Virus record (IMG/VR): IMGVR_UViG_3300032265_002598
Span: 137,068-201,067 of that record
Source: a virus
Lineage: Duplodnaviria; Caudoviricetes
Strand: one strand, 5' to 3'
DNA: 64,000 nt
Of the stretch, positions 2,486 through 63,409 are shown one piece after another. The translations under genes and the position numbers were made by a program. The notes beneath the pieces are model-generated. The model ran no database searches, was not told the origin of the DNA, and saw only the letters and a program-made list of their open reading frames with translations. The stretch's first letter is position 1; each line of letters starts with the position of its first letter.

Positions 2486-2885
2486 TTTTAATCCTATTAG
2501 ACCAAAGTTCTACATCTTCATGAAATGGCAACTCAATATAAGTTATACCATTTATATCACACCATTCCTGTTTTTCCTGATCTCTCTTCTTGTGTTTAAC
2601 AAATCCTAGCAAAGTGTTATGATAGAATGGCACAAATTTATAATGTTGCTCTCCATGCACCTCTATTGTTTTCTTTAGTAGAGGGATATAAAAATCTAAG
2701 TATAAAGTTTCTGATCTTCTTAGAGGAATTGCCACTTCTTCCAGAATTTGCATCGTGGGGAAGCATTTATGTAGTAAGTCCCTAGCAACCAAGTGCAAGG
2801 ACGATTTGTTTTTAGCTTTCCCATGCGCAATGCCTCCAATAAGTTGCCAATTGCACATGTTACCATCAAGATCTTTTACTTGCAT
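2475..2885 (-). CDS. PD-(D/E)xK nuclease (Vsr/DUF559-like)
   Basis: LYLDFYIP...IEVHGEQHY motif typical of Vsr-like endonucleases. Confidence 0.75.
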   Translation of the reverse strand: MQVKDLDGNMCNWQLIGGIAHGKAKNKSSLHLVARDLLHKCFPTMQILEEVAIPLRRSETLYLDFYIPLLKKTIEVHGEQHYKFVPFYHNTLLGFVKHKKRDQEKQEWCDINGITYIELPFHEDVELWSNRIKNEQ

Positions 2886-3901
2886 TTAATGCCCATTGTT
2901 TCCTTGACTTGTGCTAGTAAACTATCGTAGACAGCAGGATTATCTACTATATACTGTCTTAGTTTTTCTGTTCCTTGAAATTTAGGCTTGTCTGTAACTG
3001 ATGTTAGAGTATACCAAGCGCCACCCTTTTGTATAATACCAATATCAACTGCAAGCATGAGCAATTCCATTTGCTTATCTATGCCCTGACCATATCGAAT
3101 ATAGCTAGTAATAGTTCCGCCGGGAGCGCCTAATGCAGAGCACATTACTTGCCATTGAATTTCTTGACCAATTTGTTGACCATCTTCTGCTGATCCAATT
3201 TTCCAAGCGGTGTGGAACTTAGCTCTTAGTTTAATATCTGTTTGATAAGCAATAGCCTGACCACTCTTTTCTTTCCATTCAACATGACCAGTACCTGGAT
3301 TACCCATTAAGTGAGTAATACCAATAACAATATTTCTATTCACAGGAATAACATTCGCCACCTTCCTGCAAAACTTAGCCAATAGTTTAGCCCCATCCGC
3401 TCTTTGCATTTTGTTCATATCGCTAGTGATTTCTGTTTCAGTACATAGTGCAGAGTAGGAGTCTATGATAAGAACACATCCAGGAATTTCATTAATAATT
3501 CTCTCTCCAATCTGGAGATATTCTTCTGCGTGTAAAATCTTACCTTGCTGAGAACCTATAATATGAAATCTATCTAGATCTAATCCTGGAATTCCTTCTA
3601 GATCCCTTTTCTTTAATCGACCTTCAATGTTAAGGTAGTACACTTCTCTACCCTCTTTGAATCCCTGATAAGCATATTCGGGTCTTTGTGCTGTGGCAGC
3701 AAAGTCTAAAGAGGTCGTGGTCTTTCCACATTTCGGTTGTCCGGTTAAAATCATAAAACTTCCTTCTGGGACACCACCATTTAAAATAATGTCCAGAGAA
3801 GGGCTCACAGGAATTGTAATGAGTTTTTTGTCAACAACAGCACTTGCTGTGAGCATGATTTCATTACCGAAATTTTTAATTACGTCTTCTTTGAGACTCA
3901 T
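2876..3901 (-). CDS. recA: RecA/UvsX-like recombinase
   Basis: SPSLDIILNGGVPEG, Walker A GQPKCGKTT, Walker B LIIDSYSAL, KGGAWY C-terminal motif. Confidence 0.9.
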   Translation of the reverse strand: MSLKEDVIKNFGNEIMLTASAVVDKKLITIPVSPSLDIILNGGVPEGSFMILTGQPKCGKTTTSLDFAATAQRPEYAYQGFKEGREVYYLNIEGRLKKRDLEGIPGLDLDRFHIIGSQQGKILHAEEYLQIGERIINEIPGCVLIIDSYSALCTETEITSDMNKMQRADGAKLLAKFCRKVANVIPVNRNIVIGITHLMGNPGTGHVEWKEKSGQAIAYQTDIKLRAKFHTAWKIGSAEDGQQIGQEIQWQVMCSALGAPGGTITSYIRYGQGIDKQMELLMLAVDIGIIQKGGAWYTLTSVTDKPKFQGTEKLRQYIVDNPAVYDSLLAQVKETMGIKCK

Positions 3902-39012: not shown

Positions 39013-39942
39013 TTAGAGTACAGGTCTAATGATACCATAGCCCTCATATTTCTTTATTCCTGTATAATTCTGCTGATGCAGTTTCATGGCTTTTTTAGCA
39101 AAAACCGCCACATAATCGTCAGATGATTTTAGCATATTCTCAAGCATAGCAAATTTAATTTTTTTAGCAAACGATAAAAATAAAGCAGCACAGCCTACCG
39201 CAAATGGTGTTGCCATACTAGTTCCAGACATAGAAGCATAGGTATTCCCAGGTACAGCACTAATAATATCTGCTCCCGGTGCCAAGAAGTCAAGTTCTTC
39301 TCCACAGCAACTAAATGAACAAATATTCAATCTCTCATCTACTGCACCAACGCTAATTGTATTATTATATTTTGCTGGATACTGAATTCCTGATTCTATA
39401 CCACTGTTTCCTGCTGCACAAAAAATTATTACATTTTTGTATTTAGCATATTCTATAGCTTTTTCTATCTGAATAGCAGGATACTCTGAACCAAGAGACA
39501 TAGTGATTAAATCTGCTTCGTGGTCAGCAGCCCACACAATAGCTTCAGCGACATTTTTATTAATACCTGACCCATCGGCCCCAAGTGCTTTAATAGGCAT
39601 GATCTTGGCTTGCGGAGCGACTCCTACCATGCCCACTCCATTGTTAACAGCAGCTATCGTACCAGCAACGTGAGTACCGTGACCATTATCATCTTGTGGT
39701 GGTTGATCTGGATCAATAAAATTATATCCATCTACAATATTATCTTTAATATCTTCATGATTTAAATCGCACCCAGTATCTATTACTGCTACAGTAACAC
39801 CCTCTCCTTGAGAATGTCTCCATTGTTGAGGAATGGAGAATTTATCAATGGGCCAACTATGAAACTGACTAGAACCTACCGACAAACCATAAATATCTTT
39901 TCTTGTGTGAGGTAAAAGCTTACATTGTTTCTTTTTTAACAT
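39013..39942 (-). CDS. Subtilisin-like serine protease (S8)
   Basis: Catalytic triad VAVIDTG, HGTHVAG, GTSMATP. Confidence 0.95.
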   Translation of the reverse strand: MLKKKQCKLLPHTRKDIYGLSVGSSQFHSWPIDKFSIPQQWRHSQGEGVTVAVIDTGCDLNHEDIKDNIVDGYNFIDPDQPPQDDNGHGTHVAGTIAAVNNGVGMVGVAPQAKIMPIKALGADGSGINKNVAEAIVWAADHEADLITMSLGSEYPAIQIEKAIEYAKYKNVIIFCAAGNSGIESGIQYPAKYNNTISVGAVDERLNICSFSCCGEELDFLAPGADIISAVPGNTYASMSGTSMATPFAVGCAALFLSFAKKIKFAMLENMLKSSDDYVAVFAKKAMKLHQQNYTGIKKYEGYGIIRPVL

Positions 39943-39944
39943 AA

Positions 39945-40685
39945 TTATTTCTTAATAATGTTTCTAATCCATGGAATATACATACTAATTCTTGTATGAC
40001 AACTTTCATCACCGTATGTTGAGTCTGGTTTACCATCATACCCCAATACTGAAGAATTTATACCAGCAAGTTTTCCATCTATAAAAAGACCGCCACCACT
40101 ATCTCCACTACAAATTAAATATTCAAGTTCTGTGATTTTTTGGCTGGGTTTGGAAGCATTACAGACTAAAGTTCCTCTTTCTATTTTTGTAATATAGTTA
40201 GATCCAGCTCTTTTTTTACCATCAAAAATATTTACTCCAGTATTGAAATTTCCAGTAAGTCCAACACCAGCAATAGCAGCTATTTTTCCAACTTCATCTG
40301 AATCCTCATATAACTCTGGATAAGGAGACATATCTACTTGTTCTGAGATGTGACCTACTGCTATATCATAATATCCAAAAATATTGTCACTATATTTTTC
40401 ATGACAAATAATAGAATCTAAATTGTATTTTTTATCATCAACAATTATTTGATGATCTTTCATATTTTTTACAACATGAGCTGCTGTTATTATCCAATTA
40501 TTATCTACTATTACAGCAGAACCCGCTGCTTGTCCATTACCATCATAGCAAACAATTTTAACAGTATGTTTAAATTTAGATCCATATTCTATATATTTAG
40601 AGTCTTCAACATTGGGATCAATTGTCCCAGCGAAAGAATTTGAAAGAAATAAAAAAACACCCAGAAGAAAAATTAAGCTTTTCAT
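39945..40685 (-). CDS. Trypsin-like serine protease (S1) with signal peptide
   Basis: ITAAH, YDIAV, GDSGG; N-terminal MKSLIFLLGVFLFLSNSFA. Confidence 0.92.
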   Translation of the reverse strand: MKSLIFLLGVFLFLSNSFAGTIDPNVEDSKYIEYGSKFKHTVKIVCYDGNGQAAGSAVIVDNNWIITAAHVVKNMKDHQIIVDDKKYNLDSIICHEKYSDNIFGYYDIAVGHISEQVDMSPYPELYEDSDEVGKIAAIAGVGLTGNFNTGVNIFDGKKRAGSNYITKIERGTLVCNASKPSQKITELEYLICSGDSGGGLFIDGKLAGINSSVLGYDGKPDSTYGDESCHTRISMYIPWIRNIIKK

Positions 40686-40712
40686 GGGTCATTCCTTTGA
40701 CGGATATGTAAA

Positions 40713-41045
40713 CTAAGGTCTATTTTTAACCTTATTTAAATACACCGAACAATCTTCTATGACCGATTTATTATAACTCTTAAAGTTCATTAAATGACCA
40801 AATAGAAAGTGGCATGGGTCTGCACACAAAGTCACAAGATTTGAAGGATCAAGTTCTAGCTCTGGACTAATATGAACTGGGGTTTTATGATGAACTTCTA
40901 ATTTTTTATCTCTACCACAAGCAATACAATATGGATTTTCTTTTAAGTGTTGTTTTCTTACATTACTCCATTTTGGAGATCGTACTGCAAACCTAATTTT
41001 ATTCAGGAAATTAAACATTATAATACCTTTGCAGCAATTAAACAT
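40713..41045 (-). CDS. HNH endonuclease
   Basis: PYCIACG...EVHH...NLVTLC..CHFLFGH. Confidence 0.82.
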   Translation of the reverse strand: MFNCCKGIIMFNFLNKIRFAVRSPKWSNVRKQHLKENPYCIACGRDKKLEVHHKTPVHISPELELDPSNLVTLCADPCHFLFGHLMNFKSYNKSVIEDCSVYLNKVKNRP

Positions 41046-42019
41046 CCTTTAGCAACAGCGTGTAAGGGGTCTGCCGCATGTCTGACTTCTTTAATTTGCA
41101 ACGGAAATCCATTTTCTTCTAATTTTTTAGCAAACTCCTTAATATATCCGTTAGCTTGAGAAGTACCACCGGCTACCACAATAACCAAAGGATTTTTAAA
41201 TTTTGGTAATGATTTATGGTTTAATAAAGCATGGGCTAATTGTTTTGTAGTATAGTCTATTAGTCTCTCATAATAAGCTGACACAGCACCTAAAACTGGA
41301 TTATCATTAGGTTCACCAATCGTAAAACCCCCAGCCTCTTTCTCTGCCTGCACAACACTATCTGGTTCTCCTGTAGCAACAGAACTCATGCGATCAATCC
41401 AGTCTCCACTTTTGGTTGTGCTGAATACTACAGTAGGTTCGCCATTTAACATAACACAAACATTTGTCATACCAGCCCCACAACTAACAGCAATACCAGT
41501 ATAATCCTCAACTTCTAATTCAGCATAACAAAGAGCCTCTGCTTCATTAATAGCTTTAGCGCTATATCCACATTCAGCTAGAATAGTTTTGACTACATCT
41601 TCATGGTATCCGACATCAAAATCTTCATCTTCTTGATCTACTGGTTGAGCAGGGACGCAGAATACTAACTTTTCATTTTCTTCTTTAGCTTTACCCGCTA
41701 CTTCTTTCAAGATAAAAGCCAATATTTTTTTGGCATCTTTTTCTTTGGCAGATACTACGCCTTTATACATTGGTCTTTTAGCAGTATCATTTCTTTCTAT
41801 AGCTTTTTCAATAGCATCTTTACCTAATAGGATAAATGATCCATCAGTATCTTTAATAAAAACTTTTCCTGCTAATCCTTTCTCTATCATCTTTGTAGCA
41901 ACTGGTGTGGTTGGTTTGATAACATAAAAAGCATCTCTAAAATCTTTATAAACAATACTATTTTTATTTTCTTTTGATAATACTATGTAACTTGTACCAA
42001 CGTCTAATCCAGCTGCCAT
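41018..42019 (-). CDS. Actin-like ATPase, volactin/salactin-type
   Basis: Phosphate-1 GLDVGTS, connect-1 INEAEA, phosphate-2 SCGAGMTNV, adenosine VAGGTS, connect-2 PLHAVAKGCL. Confidence 0.9.
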   Translation of the reverse strand: MAAGLDVGTSYIVLSKENKNSIVYKDFRDAFYVIKPTTPVATKMIEKGLAGKVFIKDTDGSFILLGKDAIEKAIERNDTAKRPMYKGVVSAKEKDAKKILAFILKEVAGKAKEENEKLVFCVPAQPVDQEDEDFDVGYHEDVVKTILAECGYSAKAINEAEALCYAELEVEDYTGIAVSCGAGMTNVCVMLNGEPTVVFSTTKSGDWIDRMSSVATGEPDSVVQAEKEAGGFTIGEPNDNPVLGAVSAYYERLIDYTTKQLAHALLNHKSLPKFKNPLVIVVAGGTSQANGYIKEFAKKLEENGFPLQIKEVRHAADPLHAVAKGCLIAAKVL

Positions 42020-42022
42020 ATT

Positions 42023-42355
42023 TCACCTCTTCATATTTTTAAGTTTATTTATTGAAGTACTTATATCTTCTTCAGATTGATTGATTTCTCCCAAAGATTC
42101 GTACTTCTTTTCCATTCCAGATGTCTTAATATCAACCACATATTTAGTATCATCAATAGACACAACCGTTTTATCTTTTTTCGTTTCTTGAAAAAAACTT
42201 GTTGGTTTACTATTAATAACAGTATTACATACACCAGCATTAGATTGCTTACCAACAAAATAGCCGATTAAAAACAAACACACCCCTAAGATTAGGAGTG
42301 TGCTTGAGAAGAAAATAATAGTGGGTAAGTTTATTGATACTGATATTTCATTCAT
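42023..42355 (-). CDS. Single-pass membrane protein upstream of the actin gene
   Basis: TIIFFSSTLLILGVCLFLIGYFVG transmembrane segment; stops 3 nt before the actin start. Confidence 0.7.
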   Translation of the reverse strand: MNEISVSINLPTIIFFSSTLLILGVCLFLIGYFVGKQSNAGVCNTVINSKPTSFFQETKKDKTVVSIDDTKYVVDIKTSGMEKKYESLGEINQSEEDISTSINKLKNMKR

Positions 42356-43265
42356 GTTTATATGAGCCTATCACTCTTCCCTTTTGGGTTCTTACAGCAA
42401 AACCTTTTCGTACTAGATATGGTTCTATGCTATTCTCAATAGTGTCCATAGCAATTCCAGTTAAAGCTGAAATACTCTTTAGGCCCAATCCAGCACCTTT
42501 AGAATTAGCAAGCACCTTTAAATACATCTTATCATACACATCCAAACCGTCCTTATCAATGCCCTGACTATTAAAGATTTCATCCACACTCATCTTCTTC
42601 TCTGTATAATACGCACTACAATTCTTATACCATTGTAGTCTACCATTCAGAATTCTAGGAGTTCCCTTGCTTCTTTTAGCAATTTCTAGCAAATCTTCAT
42701 CACTAATATGTAAACCTAGTTTGTTAGCGTTCAATCCTGCTAGTTTAGCTAGATCAATTTCATTATAGAAAGACAAATGTTCTTTAATTTGAAATCTGTC
42801 ATAAAATGGCTGACTTAAAGATCCACCACTAGTTGTTGCTCCAACCAAAGTAAATACTGGCAACTCAATAGTCTCTGGCTTTTCTTTGTCTTGTTCATCT
42901 TTAACAGTAATATTTAGAACAAAATCTTCCATAACAGGATATAGAAATTCTTCGACAATTTTTGGTAGACGATGGATTTCATCAATAAATAAAACAGAAT
43001 GCTTTTCCATTCCCATAATATAGGGCAAAATATTTTTGATACCACGAACAGTGGCAGCATTGATGGTATATAGGTTGACTCCCATCTCAGTAGCTATAGC
43101 ACTGGCTATTGTAGTCTTTCCTAGCCCCGGTGGGCCGTCTATTAAAAGATGAGGCATCACACCACCAGAATTTTTACAACCAGCAACCACGATGTTTAAC
43201 CGTGTAATCACTTCTGACTGTCCAATAATTTCACTAAATCGCGTGGGACGAATTGCATTAGCCAT
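42348..43265 (-). CDS. ruvB: Holliday-junction branch-migration ATPase RuvB
   Basis: RPTRFSEIIGQ, HLLIDGPPGLGKTT, FIDEIHRL, GATT, DRF, GTPRI, EPYLVR..RTQKGR. Likely start is MANAIRP at 43265. Confidence 0.93.
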   Translation of the reverse strand: MANAIRPTRFSEIIGQSEVITRLNIVVAGCKNSGGVMPHLLIDGPPGLGKTTIASAIATEMGVNLYTINAATVRGIKNILPYIMGMEKHSVLFIDEIHRLPKIVEEFLYPVMEDFVLNITVKDEQDKEKPETIELPVFTLVGATTSGGSLSQPFYDRFQIKEHLSFYNEIDLAKLAGLNANKLGLHISDEDLLEIAKRSKGTPRILNGRLQWYKNCSAYYTEKKMSVDEIFNSQGIDKDGLDVYDKMYLKVLANSKGAGLGLKSISALTGIAMDTIENSIEPYLVRKGFAVRTQKGRVIGSYKHE

Positions 43266-43671
43266 TTTTTTCTCCAAAGTTTTTTAAAGCCTGTTTGATT
43301 AAATCAACGCAAATATAAGTAGGTGTTCTGTCAAAGGTTGAGACTATTAGTTTCTCAGCTTCACTAATATCAAAACCATATCCAAGTAAAATTGTACAAG
43401 ATTGTGTTAAAAGATCTAAAGGAATAGTTTCTTTCTTTTCCTCCGTTTCTGCTGCTAAAGATGACTTCTTTTGAGTCTGACTATAGATAATCTCATTTTT
43501 TTCTACTAGTTTTACCCTAAGTATCTCATTGCAGTCGCAGACTATTCTATATCCTTTTGTCTGTGCCTCTTTCATGGAAATCCAATGGTCTGAAGAACAT
43601 TTAGGACATCTATATTTTAGATGAACATCTTGATCAATCGGTCTCAGGCGTTTCTGTTTGATTGTTGGCAT
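43258..43671 (-). CDS. Zn-ribbon protein fused to a RuvA domain-III-like C terminus
   Basis: CPKC...CDC N-terminal; C-terminal LLGYGFDISEAEKLI...DLIKQALK matches RuvA domain III; immediately upstream of ruvB. Confidence 0.7.
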   Translation of the reverse strand: MPTIKQKRLRPIDQDVHLKYRCPKCSSDHWISMKEAQTKGYRIVCDCNEILRVKLVEKNEIIYSQTQKKSSLAAETEEKKETIPLDLLTQSCTILLGYGFDISEAEKLIVSTFDRTPTYICVDLIKQALKNFGEKNG

Positions 43672-44068
43672 CTTCTTTTACCCAAAAAATGAAATCGTTT
43701 TTTTCACTGTCGTATCCACTATCCAAAACCCCCTTGTTAACCAAGGTATTCAAAATATTGCTGACCATTCTTCCGTTCAAATCTTCTATAATCTCTCCTA
43801 AAATTTTATCAGTAAGTGAGTATCGAATTTCTTTACTTTTTTTATTGATTTGTTTTCTAGCATGATTCTTAATGATAACAGATGCTTCCTCATGACTTAG
43901 AGTAATATCCATCTCTTCTATTTCTTCTTTACTCATTATTGATAAAGAAGCTGTCAAAGAATCTGCTGCTACTTCATTAACTTGTCCAAATAAATTAAAA
44001 ACCAAAGCTCTTGAATGGTCAACAAATTCTTCAAAATTACTTATAAAAAACCATTTTTCATTCTTCAT
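43634..44068 (-). CDS. Hypothetical protein (paralog family with 59015 and 59379)
   Basis: C-terminal LVNKGVLDSGYDSEKNDFIFW. Confidence 0.6.
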   Translation of the reverse strand: MKNEKWFFISNFEEFVDHSRALVFNLFGQVNEVAADSLTASLSIMSKEEIEEMDITLSHEEASVIIKNHARKQINKKSKEIRYSLTDKILGEIIEDLNGRMVSNILNTLVNKGVLDSGYDSEKNDFIFWVKEDANNQTETPETD

Positions 44069-55120: not shown

Positions 55121-55831
55121 TTAGTTCTCCAGAACATAACTCCAGTAACGACTATCTTCTTTCTTTTGCAGATCGTCCCAATAGATTGATCGGGCAACAT
55201 ATGATGGAACTTTAAGCTTTCCACAATTTACCATCCAGTGACGCTCCATCTTTTTATAAATCTCTGAGCCAGACTTACTCTTATTATACTTTAGAGCCTC
55301 AACATCGTAAAGCCTAAGTTGATGAATATCTCCACACAGCACCCTTGCCTCATTAGGGTGGATCATCTCAAGAGCAAAGCTAATTTTAGCCAACCCAATT
55401 CCACTAATCTTATTAAGGATACTGTCTCGTTTCTTAACATGATACTTCTTAGTAGTCAAATAAAAGTCTTTAGGATTAGCCCAAAACTTGGTACTAAAAT
55501 CCCAGATATAAGTGGTGCGATTATTGTGTAGACCGACGCCACTCTTATGAAGTTTTTCCAAAAGAATTTCTTTGCTATCTACCCATTCGCTAAAATTCTT
55601 AATAGCATTATATCCTTTGACATTACCTTGCCAAGTGGTGTGAACTGAGCAATAGGCAAAAAGATAGCGACGAAAAATATCTTCATCAGTCTTGGGACGA
55701 ACAGTTTCCCAATAATCTTTATAAGCAACAACCTTGTCCTTGGGAAAATTCTTAAAAAATTCATCAGCCTTGCTGGTACTCATAACAACAGGCTTTTTTT
55801 CAATTCGATCTTGCTGGATTAGGTCAGACAT
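55121..55831 (-). CDS. HhH-GPD-superfamily DNA glycosylase/AP lyase (Ogg/EndoIII-like)
   Basis: HhH ISGIGLAKISFAL followed by LCGDIHQLR (catalytic Asp). Likely start is MSDLIQQ at 55831. Confidence 0.72.
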   Translation of the reverse strand: MSDLIQQDRIEKKPVVMSTSKADEFFKNFPKDKVVAYKDYWETVRPKTDEDIFRRYLFAYCSVHTTWQGNVKGYNAIKNFSEWVDSKEILLEKLHKSGVGLHNNRTTYIWDFSTKFWANPKDFYLTTKKYHVKKRDSILNKISGIGLAKISFALEMIHPNEARVLCGDIHQLRLYDVEALKYNKSKSGSEIYKKMERHWMVNCGKLKVPSYVARSIYWDDLQKKEDSRYWSYVLEN

Positions 55832-55867
55832 TTCAACTCCAAGTTTGTTTCCAAAGTGTATGCTGTG

Positions 55868-55896
55868 ATTGTACACTAGTCCTATCGTCTTGTCAA
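55868..55896 (-). promoter_or_regulatory. sigma70-type promoter of the glycosylase gene
   Basis: TTGACA-N17-TACAAT with TG extension and ACGAT in the spacer. Confidence 0.8.
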
Positions 55897-55907
55897 GCCA
55901 CTGCTCT

Positions 55908-56333
55908 TTAGTTTTTATCCTGACTTAGCCTTTTTTCTTCCACGATGCTATCAAATTTCTTGGTATGATAATTATATTCCCAAGGTCGCCATCTTATTTT
56001 TGTACTAACTATAGTTTTAATTTCTTGTCCAGTTTTTACATCTGTATATTTCGCTATAGCCCAATAATATTCCTCGCCCTTTACAACATCTTCAAGAATT
56101 TGAAAATCATGTGGATATCCTAATTCAGAATGTATCCTATTTTTACCCATCCATTTAACATAATTTTCTATCTGCTCATTATATTCTATAGGGAAAAAGA
56201 TATTATTAATTGATCTTTCTATAACAACAGCTTTTTCTCCAACATATTCTGAGTTGCAGATAAATCCTATAGCAACACCGACAAATAAAAATAGCCAGTG
56301 ATAAAAAATTGACCGTATAACAATCTTGTGCAT
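55908..56333 (-). CDS. Membrane-anchored hypothetical protein
   Basis: HWLFLFVGVAIGFIC transmembrane segment. Confidence 0.55.
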   Translation of the reverse strand: MHKIVIRSIFYHWLFLFVGVAIGFICNSEYVGEKAVVIERSINNIFFPIEYNEQIENYVKWMGKNRIHSELGYPHDFQILEDVVKGEEYYWAIAKYTDVKTGQEIKTIVSTKIRWRPWEYNYHTKKFDSIVEEKRLSQDKN

Positions 56334-56361
56334 GGTAGGCTCCTTTGAGGCGGGACATTTT

Positions 56362-56369
56362 TATACACC
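56362..56369 (-). promoter_or_regulatory. RGTGTATW motif upstream of 55908..56333
   Basis: GGTGTATAAAAAT. Confidence 0.5.
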
Positions 56370-56390
56370 GCTCTTAATTGGAACCAATAA

Positions 56391-57689
56391 TCAAATATCC
56401 CTCTCATCCCCATGCAAAATCTTAAATGTCGGAAATCTTAGGCTAATACCACCCTTTTCATTTTCTGTTTCCTCAAAGTATTGAACGGTAATTTGCTTTC
56501 CAAGAATTTTCTTAGGGTTCTTATAAAACTCCTGTCTTTGATCAATACTAAAACCAGAACCCACCCTGACAGTATGACCCTTATGTTGAATCATAACACA
56601 ACTCAACATAATCTCTTCACACTCTGCACCATCTTTAACATAGCGGAACGGCCCCATTTCAGTATCTAGAACTTCATATTCGTCATCAAAGAATGATTTA
56701 TATTTGAGAAGGTCTTTTGATCGCTTACCCTTATAAGGAGTATCTGCACGAAGCATAAGTCCCTCCCAACCATTCTGAGTAGATTCTTTGACAAATTCTT
56801 GAAAATGGTTTTCGTCCTTAATCAAAGACTGACCCAATAGTGTTAGACATGGACATTCATTCTTTTTCATAACTTCTGTAAGATTCTTGAGTCTGATACC
56901 AAAGGGTCTATTATATTCTCCTTTCTGACTATAAAATTCATCATGAGTAATCATATCAAAAATCTTATAGGAAGGATTAGGAATAGTATGATCCTTCTTG
57001 CGAAGTTCCTTCATTACTCCTTGAAAATCCTCATTACCATCTTCATCAACAAGACAAAGTTCTCCATCAAGAACTACATTAGTAAGTCCCAAAGCTTTAA
57101 TCCCACCGCTAACAACGTCAAGAGTATCAAAGTTTTTTCCCGTGCGGGAATAAAAGGTAGTATTACCATTACTGTCAACAATAGCAATACATCTAGCACC
57201 GTCGATCTTCCTGCTAACATACCATCCATCCTTCCAGTCTACAATTTTAGGAACATACTTGTCCGCTAATGCAACGCTAAATGTTGGAATGTGATCTGGA
57301 ATAGCCTTATTGATTAACTTATCTCCAGCACGGGTTTTCAAGTCTTTATCAATGATGCAGTGAATTAGTTGTTCGTGTCCATTATTGTCAATAAAAGTAT
57401 TAACTGCTCCAATAGCATCGTGTCCTGTAATTTCTCTATTCTTCAAAGAATCCAGCAAATCAAAAATAGTTTTAAAAGATTGTCCTCTGAGAGAGGATTT
57501 CTTTTTGAGATTATCGCTGGTCACATTATACTGCCAAAGAGGATGATAAGTATAGAGCAAAATCTTTTTGATAAAATCTGCTCCAGCCTGATTGGAAGAG
57601 GTATAATCCTCAATAATTCCAACTTTATCAAGTGTACTACTAGTTGCTTTCAGATCACGAACAAAACCATTAAGATGCTCAAATGACAT
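56391..57689 (-). CDS. lig: ATP-dependent DNA ligase
   Basis: Motif I KIDGAR, LDGEL, YKIFD, EGLMLR, KRSKDLLKYK, VGSGF, LRFP. Likely start is MSFEHL at 57689. Confidence 0.93.
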   Translation of the reverse strand: MSFEHLNGFVRDLKATSSTLDKVGIIEDYTSSNQAGADFIKKILLYTYHPLWQYNVTSDNLKKKSSLRGQSFKTIFDLLDSLKNREITGHDAIGAVNTFIDNNGHEQLIHCIIDKDLKTRAGDKLINKAIPDHIPTFSVALADKYVPKIVDWKDGWYVSRKIDGARCIAIVDSNGNTTFYSRTGKNFDTLDVVSGGIKALGLTNVVLDGELCLVDEDGNEDFQGVMKELRKKDHTIPNPSYKIFDMITHDEFYSQKGEYNRPFGIRLKNLTEVMKKNECPCLTLLGQSLIKDENHFQEFVKESTQNGWEGLMLRADTPYKGKRSKDLLKYKSFFDDEYEVLDTEMGPFRYVKDGAECEEIMLSCVMIQHKGHTVRVGSGFSIDQRQEFYKNPKKILGKQITVQYFEETENEKGGISLRFPTFKILHGDERDI

Positions 57690-57714
57690 TTCCAATTTCT
57701 CCTGTGTTTTCCCA

Positions 57715-57743
57715 AGTATAGCATACGGTAATGCTGTTGTCAA
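57715..57743 (-). promoter_or_regulatory. sigma70-type promoter of the ligase gene
   Basis: TTGACA-N17-TATACT; the track's TTG start is the -35 box. Confidence 0.8.
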
Positions 57744-58162
57744 GCATCATTTCGTCTTTTCTCTAGCAAATGGTTTAAAGAAAAAACCACGCCTTGAATA
57801 ATGTGATTTAGCACAGCTTGATCTTCAACTTTACTTCTTACTGATAAGTATTTCAAAGCAGCAACAATACCTTCTAAATTATCTCCTAATTTTCCTATCC
57901 CTATATTACAAGTTTCACATAACCATCCCCTAAAGGTATGATAAACATGGTCATGATCTAGGTGCCATTTATCTGGGCTACAAAAACAACACTCACAACC
58001 CTCTGGTTTTATTGGTGCCTTTTTTCTTAGCTTATTTCTAATCTTAGTATGTTTCTTCACACACTTTCTGCATCTACTGTCCAGATTGTCTTTATGTCCA
58101 ATATGTCTAGCAAAAGACTTGGCATTTTTTCTTTTCCCACAGTATATGCAAATCTTTCTCAT
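57740..58162 (-). CDS. Endonuclease VII-domain protein
   Basis: CECC...LDHDH...FRGWLCETCN.GIG.LGDN....ALKYL. Confidence 0.85.
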   Translation of the reverse strand: MRKICIYCGKRKNAKSFARHIGHKDNLDSRCRKCVKKHTKIRNKLRKKAPIKPEGCECCFCSPDKWHLDHDHVYHTFRGWLCETCNIGIGKLGDNLEGIVAALKYLSVRSKVEDQAVLNHIIQGVVFSLNHLLEKRRNDA

Positions 58163-62349: not shown

Positions 62350-62499
62350 TCATTTAGAAGCTAACATATATAAGCCCACATTTGCCGCCGCATATCCCAT
62401 ATAAGCAATAAACATACCGTAATTATTATGTAAATAACCTTGTTCTACTGCTATGTAAACATAAATTAAGCCAGTAATAAGAATAAGATTAGCTGACAT
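62350..62499 (-). CDS. Unannotated 49-aa two-TM membrane protein
   Basis: Manual translation MSANLILITGLIYVYIAVEQGYLHNNYGMFIAYMGYAAANVGLYMLASK; overlaps the uvsE stop. Confidence 0.65.
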   Translation of the reverse strand: MSANLILITGLIYVYIAVEQGYLHNNYGMFIAYMGYAAANVGLYMLASK

Positions 62500-63409
62500 T
62501 TGAAATCTCTCTGGTTAAAAGTTCACTGTACTCTGCAATAGCCAAGTCTTTAGCTTTCAATTCCATATCAAGATCAAACTCTAGTCCATAAGTATTCAAG
62601 GGTTTTACTGCATAATCTGCGTGTTTACGAGGATTAGTTCCTAGTGATGATTCGCTATAATGAAAAAGAGGTTTTGTTTGCCAAGTTTCCCAGCACATAT
62701 TAATAGCATCACTTTCCGACAAATTATTGGGGTGACATTTATGATGCAGATAATCGAAGCAGATCGGGATGCGTGTAATTGGATAGAAAATATCTACCAA
62801 TTCTTGAACACTCCAACAATTTAGTTTATCATCGTTCTCTATTGTTATACGATCCTGACAATTTTTGTCCAGTTTTTTGAAGTTGTTATAAAATCTGTGG
62901 GCAATTTCTTCTCTGGTTCCATTATTGTTATGAACATGAAAATTCATGGGTGATCTACGGTCTGCTGGCAACCCTATTCTGTCAAAGAAACTACTGTAGA
63001 AGTTGAGTTCTGAGATTGTTTTTTCGACAACTTTTTCATTGAGACTTGCCAAACTATTAAATTCACTAGGATGAGCAGAAACCCGAACATTAGTATTGGT
63101 AATAGTATTTGCGATATTGTCGAACTCATCTTGGATAGCATCATGATTAGGTAAATCTTCCAATTCAACATTTGCTTCATCATAAGTAATAAGTGGAAAA
63201 ATATCGCTACTAACGCGATAGGTATAATTATTTTCTGCACAAAACTGAATAGTCTTGTTTGTTGTAACTAGATTATTTAGAATTCTATCTCCAAGAGTTT
63301 CTAATGCTTCTTCTCTTGGCAAAGAATTAAAACGCTTAAAGGTCATAGTCTGATGACCAAAACCTTGATCTTTAAGTTTGAGAGAAATGCAACACAGTCC
63401 GAATCTCAT
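62489..63409 (-). CDS. uvsE: UV-damage endonuclease (UvsE/UvdE)
   Basis: GLCCIS, YRVSSDIFP, RVSAHP, HVH, TIENDD, CFDYLHH, FHYSES, HADY, MELKAKD. Confidence 0.93.
   Translation of the reverse strand: MRFGLCCISLKLKDQGFGHQTMTFKRFNSLPREEALETLGDRILNNLVTTNKTIQFCAENNYTYRVSSDIFPLITYDEANVELEDLPNHDAIQDEFDNIANTITNTNVRVSAHPSEFNSLASLNEKVVEKTISELNFYSSFFDRIGLPADRRSPMNFHVHNNNGTREEIAHRFYNNFKKLDKNCQDRITIENDDKLNCWSVQELVDIFYPITRIPICFDYLHHKCHPNNLSESDAINMCWETWQTKPLFHYSESSLGTNPRKHADYAVKPLNTYGLEFDLDMELKAKDLAIAEYSELLTREISNVS

Follow-up and report, generated by a model that had tools for sequence, protein, structure and literature searches.

RuvAB is the textbook branch-migration machine of bacteria, in which the fourfold platform of RuvA is regarded as giving the RuvB motor its substrate. 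Within this machine, RuvA domain III acts as nucleotide-exchange factor, ATPase activator and power-stroke anchor (PMC9477746), docking on a composite site of bacterial RuvB that is formed by helix α3 and the presensor-1 β-hairpin (PMC9477746, PMC10272136). RuvA and RuvB from different species work together as pairs (PMC9477746), and in RuvA a flexible linker precedes domain III (PMC2628435). Here, we describe a phage locus in which ruvB is paired with a different kind of partner gene. The locus lies at positions 42348 to 43671 of the window, by which we mean the whole 64-kb stretch of DNA that was analyzed; the window is the final part (positions 137068 to 201067) of IMG/VR virus record IMGVR_UViG_3300032265_002598, a phage record of 201,067 bp with direct terminal repeats and a CheckV completeness of 100%. 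Its G+C content is ∼33%, and the minus strand carries nearly all of its genes. Two overlapping minus-strand open reading frames (ORFs) fill the locus, the upstream one encoding a protein of 137 residues, which we call the adaptor, and the downstream one RuvB. Our analyses indicate that the adaptor is likely a cofactor of RuvB that is of the RuvA type but carries another targeting module, and that it represents a large family, so far undescribed, of proteins that probably serve as RuvB adaptors.

The closest described counterpart is bacterial RuvA (1IXR/1IXS, 1C7Y, 7PBL–7PBT and 7X7Q). The two share a three-helix domain III with the signature LxxLGYxxxEA and a flexible linker ahead of it, a gene immediately upstream of ruvB, and a partner RuvB with the α3/presensor-1 hairpin site. 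Unlike RuvA, the adaptor has neither domain I (an OB-fold) nor domain II (two HhH motifs) and carries a basic, four-cysteine zinc ribbon instead; moreover, it has 137 rather than ∼200 residues, is encoded by a phage and is dispensable in close relatives. Because domains I and II are missing, the adaptor would lack both the tetrameric, fourfold junction platform and the acidic pin, and, as judged from its domain content, an adaptor tetramer that binds four-way junctions is unlikely. The C-terminal part of the adaptor also resembles isolated RuvA domain III (1IXS_A, 7X7P and 7PBL_G) in size and fold, with template modeling (TM) scores of 0.78 to 0.79 and root mean square deviations (rmsd) of 1.5 to 2.0 Å over 47 to 50 residues, but the isolated domain is a laboratory fragment that alone binds RuvB, whereas the adaptor is a natural stand-alone protein with another targeting module. 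An analogy can also be drawn with T4-type phages, which combine a phage branch-migration motor (UvsW) with an EndoVII-family resolvase (gp49) and a RecA/UvsX-like recombinase. Their motor is a superfamily 2 helicase; that of the present phage is an AAA+ hexamer, RuvB of the bacterial type, assisted by a domain III cofactor. A literature search returned no description of an architecture that joins a zinc ribbon to RuvA domain III.

The assignment of the C-terminal domain draws on three alignments: A1, with 17 close homologues; A3, with 37 diverse sequences; and A6, with 150 sequences. When searched against 177,635 distinct PDB sequences, the A3 profile placed domain III of Thermus thermophilus RuvA first (1IXS_A, E value 4.8e-4) and 1IXR second, with five further RuvA entries among the 13 matches listed. 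Chain A of 1IXS is the RuvA fragment that was crystallized with RuvB. The A6 profile gave the same leading matches (1IXS_A, E value 5e-4), and with either profile seven of the 13 to 14 entries listed were RuvA. In hhalign comparisons with 17 gammaproteobacterial RuvA proteins, the P value dropped from 8.7e-4 to 1.1e-4 and then 1.1e-5 as the adaptor profile was deepened, while the probability rose from 23% to 56% and then 82%. The alignment always paired the adaptor C terminus with RuvA residues ∼147 to 199, that is, with domain III end to end (adaptor residues 85 to 132 in A1). When 150 sequences, the window protein and 149 representatives, were scanned individually, 12 matched Pfam RuvA_C (PF07499), the best with an E value of 3.5e-6; every other family was matched by at most two sequences, and UBA, CUE and TS_N were matched by none. 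Given these 12 relatives and the 82% profile–profile probability, the adaptor appears to be a divergent RuvA_C member that a single-sequence scan misses. The shallow A1 alignment had yielded an AlphaFold2 (AF2) model with a predicted local distance difference test (pLDDT) score of 54, weak Foldseek matches to zinc ribbons only and none to RuvA, and a spurious CDK11 match in the PDB profile search; these results were superseded by those from the deeper A3 and A6.

Structure comparisons led to the same domain. In a Foldseek search of 350,542 PDB chains, RuvA domain III accounted for 10 of the top 11 matches, including 1ixs_A (TM score 0.78, rmsd 1.8 Å, probability 1.00) and 7pbl_G (TM score 0.79), with E values all above 0.1. 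VIA-align, which is independent of Foldseek, was run against 48,161 representative chains, and its list is led by 2ztc_A (Z score 7.4), 7pbp_G (7.1), 1ixs_A (6.3) and 1ixr_B (6.1); generic UBA, CUE and EF-Ts N-terminal domains, which belong to the same fold class, rank below RuvA at Z scores of 4 to 5. Within the C-terminal domain, invariance or near-invariance in A3 is confined to L95, Y98, G99, F100 and E104, which both hhalign and an alignment with MG1655 RuvA place opposite E. coli L167, L170, G171, Y172 and E176, so that the conserved adaptor positions coincide with the RuvA LxxLGYxxxEA signature. According to PMC2628435, which cites Nishino 1998, the RuvA substitutions L167A and L170A abolished RuvB activity in vivo and left junction binding unaffected. 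Each score is modest by itself, as is expected of a domain of 50 residues, and it is their agreement that supports the domain III assignment; as judged from sequence and predicted structure together, adaptor residues 84 to 135 are truly homologous to RuvA domain III.

The N-terminal domain of the adaptor has no resemblance to the OB-fold or HhH domains of RuvA. The AF2 model computed from A3 (mean pLDDT 84.5) has two domains, the N-terminal one consisting of four short strands in two hairpins (17 to 21/28 to 32 and 42 to 44/50 to 52) that are predicted with pLDDT values above 90 and bear the four cysteines. C22, C25, C45 and C47 are invariant in A3, as are P11 and W30; homologues have CxxC or Cx4C as their first knuckle (C22-x2-C25 in the window protein) and CxC or CxxC as their second (C45-x-C47). 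Residues 1 to 62 are thus modeled as a zinc ribbon, in which two knuckles, on two β-hairpins, supply the four predicted metal ligands. This domain gave weak, generic zinc-ribbon matches, to LysW, ZitP and ribosomal zinc-ribbon proteins and to the families TFIIB, Lar, SprT and OapC. Among homologues its net charge runs from +2 to +12 (median +6). An Atlas feature search with the zinc-ribbon part, in which scores were 0.80 or lower, led to viral clusters with RuvA_C that the Pfam scan then confirmed. Between the two domains, residues 63 to 83 are predicted to be disordered (pLDDT below 50 at residues 72 to 78), and the corresponding linkers of homologues are 11 to 61 residues long and rich in K, E and Q. 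The adaptor had no match to the OB-fold family of RuvA domain I (RuvA_N, PF01330), the AF2 model having a four-strand zinc ribbon in its place; likewise, no HhH family was found among the Pfam matches of the 150 sequences, and hhalign covers only RuvA residues 147 to 199. A preliminary description, made from the sequence of this stretch, had read the protein as a RuvA domain III-like helix bundle behind a CxxC...CxC Zn ribbon that replaces the OB-fold and HhH domains. The bundle is borne out by the PDB profiles, hhalign, the Pfam matches of relatives, Foldseek and VIA-align, and in the comparison with RuvA_C it is the family rather than the window protein alone that gives the match. The cysteine motif of the ribbon is real and beyond chance, given four cysteines that are invariant in 37 homologues and the confidence of the model, and the absence of the OB-fold and HhH domains agrees with both Pfam and the extent of the hhalign alignments.

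Annotation of the adaptor as a single sequence was uninformative. Tblastn against 50,697 GenBank phage records returned zero matches, a PHROGs scan returned a weak match to "DNA polymerase exonuclease subunit" (1.2e-3) with no significant stretch, and the BFVD viral structures contained no annotated, informative look-alike.

The junction between the two genes can be read directly from the sequence: GGAGA is followed by five A's and an ATG at 43265, and the adaptor gene ends with TAA at 43260 to 43258. The ORF finder had placed the ruvB start at a TTG at 43277, which is probably not real because GGAGA precedes the ATG at 43265 and because the RuvB proteins of adaptor-less relatives begin at the same MAN... 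methionine. The ATG at 43265 is therefore most likely the true ruvB start. The overlap of the upstream ORF with the start of ruvB had been recognized in the preliminary description, and it stands with the correction that it spans 8 nt from this ATG rather than extending from the TTG. This arrangement, with the ribosome-binding site of ruvB inside the adaptor gene, indicates that the adaptor and ruvB are translationally coupled.

Over 300 residues, the phage RuvB shares 41% identity with its E. coli counterpart, and it matches Pfam RuvB_N (2.1e-46), AAA_lid_4 (2.3e-7) and RuvB_C (1.3e-16). The 41 phage RuvBs compared have invariant Walker A, Walker B, sensor 1 (GATT), arginine-finger (DRF) and sensor 2 (GTPRI) motifs. 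The protein is accordingly predicted to be a complete AAA+ motor, with the AAA+ domain, lid, winged helix, catalytic motifs and presensor-1 hairpin all present. The elements that receive domain III in bacterial RuvB are both retained, with IHRLPKIVEEFLYPVMEDF ahead of the hairpin. In one related locus (L169:3419-4327) RuvB was called as two ORFs, of 166 residues and of 128 residues with the winged helix, whereas the near-identical locus L168 has a single RuvB of 300 residues; the split could be genuine, as a frameshift or pseudogene, or could stem from faulty assembly.

The adaptor belongs to a sizeable family. Whereas a word-indexed search retrieved no more than 17 close homologues (66 to 100% identity), HMMER, run exhaustively against 1.84 billion cluster representatives, identified at least 274 clusters (at 50% identity) with E values of 1e-3 or lower, 167 of them at 1e-10 or lower. 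All of these adaptor-family clusters are phage-like. The best 150 of the 274 comprise proteins of 80 to 184 residues, most of which align over nearly the full query. Searching IMG/VR with the phage RuvB retrieved 80 loci, on contigs of up to ∼240 kb, with RuvB proteins that are 63 to 99% identical. The window included, 58 of 81 loci have an adaptor homologue directly upstream of ruvB. All 80 loci keep the gene order orf138–orf144–[adaptor]–ruvB, the adaptor, if present, always lying between orf144 and ruvB, and the three most divergent members examined (28 to 31% identity) have the same orf144–adaptor–RuvB order. Thus, the adaptor gene is directly 5′ of ruvB in 61 of 61 adaptor-bearing loci (58 viral and three divergent), and no adaptor without an adjacent ruvB was seen among the loci examined. 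Outside the near-identical group of the window, adaptor homologues are 28 to 45% identical; set against the 63 to 87% identity of RuvB, this means that the adaptor evolves much faster than its neighbor.

We also surveyed what else the phage encodes for branched DNA. In the complete 201-kb genome, which has one ruvB copy, RuvA_N and RuvA_C had zero Pfam matches and no full ruvA was found; RuvC likewise had zero matches, so that its absence, noted in the preliminary description for the window, extends to the genome as a whole. The EndoVII-domain gene that had been pointed out at 57740 was confirmed by Pfam. A repair and recombination toolkit is spread over window positions 55121 to 58162, 62489 to 63409 and 2876 to 3901, all on the minus strand, and comprises an Ogg-type glycosylase, an ATP-dependent DNA ligase, EndoVII, the ultraviolet-damage endonuclease UvdE (Pfam 7e-43) and a RecA-like recombinase (7.6e-17).

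Taken together, we consider it probable that the 137-residue protein is a pared-down substitute for RuvA that is specific to phages and serves the phage's own RuvB as adaptor and activator, with its zinc ribbon as a DNA tether. From the homology of domain III we infer that it binds RuvB. Domain III would dock on the RuvB subunits and, as in RuvAB, serve as nucleotide-exchange factor, ATPase activator and anchor, while the basic zinc ribbon would bind DNA, or less likely another protein, and so hold or load the RuvB ring on phage DNA through the flexible linker of 11 to 61 residues. Strict Holliday-junction specificity is unlikely because the fourfold RuvA platform is absent, and the targets may extend to the duplex arms of forks or to branched replication and recombination intermediates. 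The RecA-like recombinase of the phage would generate such intermediates, and its endonuclease VII would cut or resolve them; EndoVII cuts many kinds of branched DNA. The part of the preliminary description that proposed a new RuvB adaptor is in this respect upheld, as a noncanonical RuvA that keeps domain III, by homology, conservation of the interface residues, coupling to ruvB and the synteny in 61 of 61 loci.

Several observations weigh against this reading. The adaptor is absent from 23 of the 81 loci, in which orf144 is followed directly by ruvB. A family-profile search of five adaptor-less genomes that are 100% complete by CheckV, two of them with terminal repeats, found no adaptor homologue although RuvB is kept; the same profile gave E values of 1e-49 to 1e-54 in four of four positive-control genomes. 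Nor did the adaptor-less genomes match RuvA_C or RuvA_N, PF07499 being a model that also misses the domain III of the window protein itself. Since relatives have lost the adaptor and yet kept RuvB together with its docking hairpin, RuvB would have no strict need for it, and the adaptor would be accessory rather than obligatory. No longer or fused adaptor forms, for example with RuvB, were found in a search for them, a weak negative because long proteins crowd such a search. The window's own adaptor, scanned singly, falls below detection by Pfam RuvA_C and matches no other Pfam family; UBA-like three-helix bundles are common, and each single E value or Z score is modest for so small a domain. 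Finally, DNA binding by the ribbon is suggested by its charge and fold class only, and zinc ribbons also make protein contacts.

The pattern of absence can be placed on a RuvB tree that was rooted with E. coli RuvB. All deep branches of this tree bear the adaptor, and the adaptor-less lineages are scattered among them. Parsimony reconstructs 10 gains or losses, and the strongly supported branches force at least two. The simplest reading of the tree is that the adaptor is ancestral in the clade and was repeatedly lost, about ten times, while RuvB would have kept its ability to dock domain III; indeed, a comparison of the RuvB hairpin between adaptor-positive and adaptor-negative phages showed no systematic difference. 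Because RuvA/RuvB pairs from different species are functional, host RuvA may substitute in the adaptor-less phages, which would then borrow it. Neither this repeated loss with the docking hairpin retained nor a family of at least 274 clusters had been part of the preliminary description. In one adaptor-less locus (L114:3697-3991), the orf144 homologue gives a partial match and the space ahead of ruvB is taken up by an ORF of 49 residues; this region may be decaying after adaptor loss.

A wider version of the proposed role, which we put forward tentatively, is that these phages have made RuvB a general-purpose motor, with a monomeric zinc-ribbon anchor and domain III loading and driving it, with no need of a Holliday junction, on other substrates such as forks, branched concatemers or plain duplex. 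If this were true, domain III plus any DNA tether would suffice to operate RuvB, and RuvA_C would be a portable RuvB-recruiting module, as an Atlas cluster that combines HNH with RuvA_C hints. This Myxococcota cluster, of 255 residues, has HNH in 64% and RuvA_C in 49% of its members and may be another portable use of domain III.

The same domain III evidence would serve equally if the adaptor were purely a regulator of RuvB, its domain III tuning the nucleotide cycle, by stimulation or braking, and its zinc ribbon binding a phage protein, such as the orf144 product, instead of DNA. Zinc ribbons often mediate protein contacts, orf144 always lies immediately upstream, and the adaptor is dispensable in many relatives. 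However, the N-terminal domain is consistently basic (+2 to +12) and has an invariant Lys/Pro-rich tail, which fits nucleic-acid binding better, and orf144 persists in phages without the adaptor and is therefore independent of it; we regard this alternative as unlikely.

Rapid evolution relative to RuvB, as expected in conflict, and repeated loss would also suit a host-directed decoy or hijacker, that is, a domain III mimic that binds host RuvB and either blocks host RuvAB or diverts it to phage DNA, or that shields the phage RuvB hairpin from host RuvA, and domain III contacts are conserved enough for RuvA and RuvB to function across species (PMC9477746). Against this, the adaptor gene is always beside the phage ruvB and is, as the junction indicates, translationally coupled to it, and it is mostly the linker that changes rapidly, the interface signature being invariant, which makes a decoy quite improbable.

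The C-terminal domain could, in principle, be a generic UBA-like three-helix bundle with no connection to RuvB, its adjacency to ruvB being an accident of a gene order that is conserved throughout the block. UBA, CUE and EF-Ts N-terminal domains do appear in the VIA-align list at Z scores of 4 to 5, and the Foldseek E values all exceed 0.1. Yet RuvA domain III came first by three independent methods and was supported by Pfam, in which UBA, CUE and TS_N are absent among the matches of 150 sequences; the invariant residues are the positions that RuvA uses to activate RuvB, and an overlap of 8 nt with the ruvB start is a specific arrangement, all of which leaves a chance neighbor very improbable. 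Hardly credible is a split RuvA, in which orf144, about as long as RuvA domains I and II and always just upstream, would supply their equivalent and the 137-residue protein domain III, since hhalign of a 45-sequence orf144 alignment with RuvA gave a P value of 0.49 and a probability of 0.1%, orf144 has no PDB, RuvA_N or HhH match and the genome has no RuvA_N; at the sequence level (hhalign, PDB and Pfam) it was rejected, though orf144 may still resemble these domains in fold.

Table 1. Features of the adaptor–ruvB locus and of related genes, in window coordinates
Feature	Position	Strand	Basis or remark
Adaptor gene (zinc-ribbon/RuvA-domain-III protein), 137 residues	43258–43671, including stop	−	ORF, family and two-domain AF2 model
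Basic N-terminal tail (KxxKP) and predicted four-cysteine zinc ribbon, residues 1–62	43486–43671	−	Invariant Cys and W30; AF2 strands
K/E-rich linker, predicted disordered, residues 63–83	43423–43485	−	pLDDT; alignment gaps
RuvA domain III homologue, residues 84–137	43261–43422	−	Predicted helices 85–97, 102–115 and 121–136; signature L95..Y98-G99-F100...E104-A105
8-nt overlap ATGGCTAA	43258–43265	−	ruvB ATG inside the end of the adaptor gene; direct sequence reading
GGAGA, putative ruvB ribosome-binding site	43271–43275	−	Within the 3′ end of the adaptor gene
ruvB, 305 residues from ATG	42348–43265, including stop	−	Pfam RuvB_N, AAA_lid_4 and RuvB_C
RuvB residues 101–138, helix α3 (PKIVEEFLYPVMEDF) and presensor-1 β-hairpin	42852–42965	−	Conserved relative to E. 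coli and in phages with and without the adaptor
orf144, invariant upstream neighbor	43634–44068	−	Synteny; not RuvA-like
Endonuclease VII family gene, candidate junction resolvase downstream of RuvB	57740–58162	−	Pfam Endonuclease_7, 2.1e-10
RecA/UvsX-like recombinase gene	2876–3901	−	Pfam RecA, 7.6e-17, at genome 140144–140953 (window 3077–3886)

The genes around the pair are themselves conserved (Table 1). The conserved residues of orf144 include R20, R100, S103, N104 and F126-x-F128-W129. The protein has no Pfam match, including to RuvA_N and HhH, and no PDB sequence match; its C-terminal half may contain a winged helix, for which there are weak leads only (APAF-1 WHD, 0.07; DsrD-like Atlas features, 0.83). 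At window positions 41018 to 42355 (minus strand) lies a gene for a Volactin-family actin of 333 residues (PF25216, 5.4e-62), preceded by one for a single-pass membrane protein of 110 residues. Volactin is otherwise a haloarchaeal family. Across the clade this actin is 71 to 99% identical, mostly 78 to 92% and usually above RuvB, and its gene is invariably preceded by that of the membrane protein. The two genes form a tightly conserved pair; inserts, from several hundred to several thousand bases in length, often lie between this pair and ruvB, and some flanks lack the pair. Because the pair moves independently of ruvB, there is no support for a specific RuvB–actin link, and the suggestion in the preliminary description that the adaptor might recruit RuvB to the neighboring actin system is not sustained by the synteny. 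Downstream of the actin gene, positions 39013 to 41045 (minus strand) encode an HNH endonuclease of 110 residues, a trypsin-like protease of 246 residues with a signal-peptide-like N terminus, and a subtilase of 309 residues (Peptidase_S8, 4e-58); the HNH and trypsin genes are conserved in most related loci.

The RuvB matches in the GenBank phage collection are of a different kind, most of them resembling bacterial chromosome. The contig labeled "Acinetobacter phage MD-2021a" (L002, CAKLQF020000007.1), for example, carries purL, dgt, ruvA, ruvB and tolQ, and the Javan141 ruvB lies in a prophage flank. Since most such records look bacterial, genuine phage-encoded RuvB is probably rarer than the number of matches suggests.

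A survey of 224 jumbo phages found no RuvB coupled to a phage RuvC (PMC7824862); set against that survey, a whole clade of jumbo-type phages here carries its own RuvB. For this clade, the loss of the adaptor in lineages that retain the docking site raises the question of whether phage RuvB can borrow host RuvA, and the adaptor itself raises the question of which DNA structures the phage wants RuvB to move. More broadly, a protein family that had been unannotated gains a testable function, and the adaptor would offer a minimal system for studying how domain III by itself acts on RuvB if tethered in another way.

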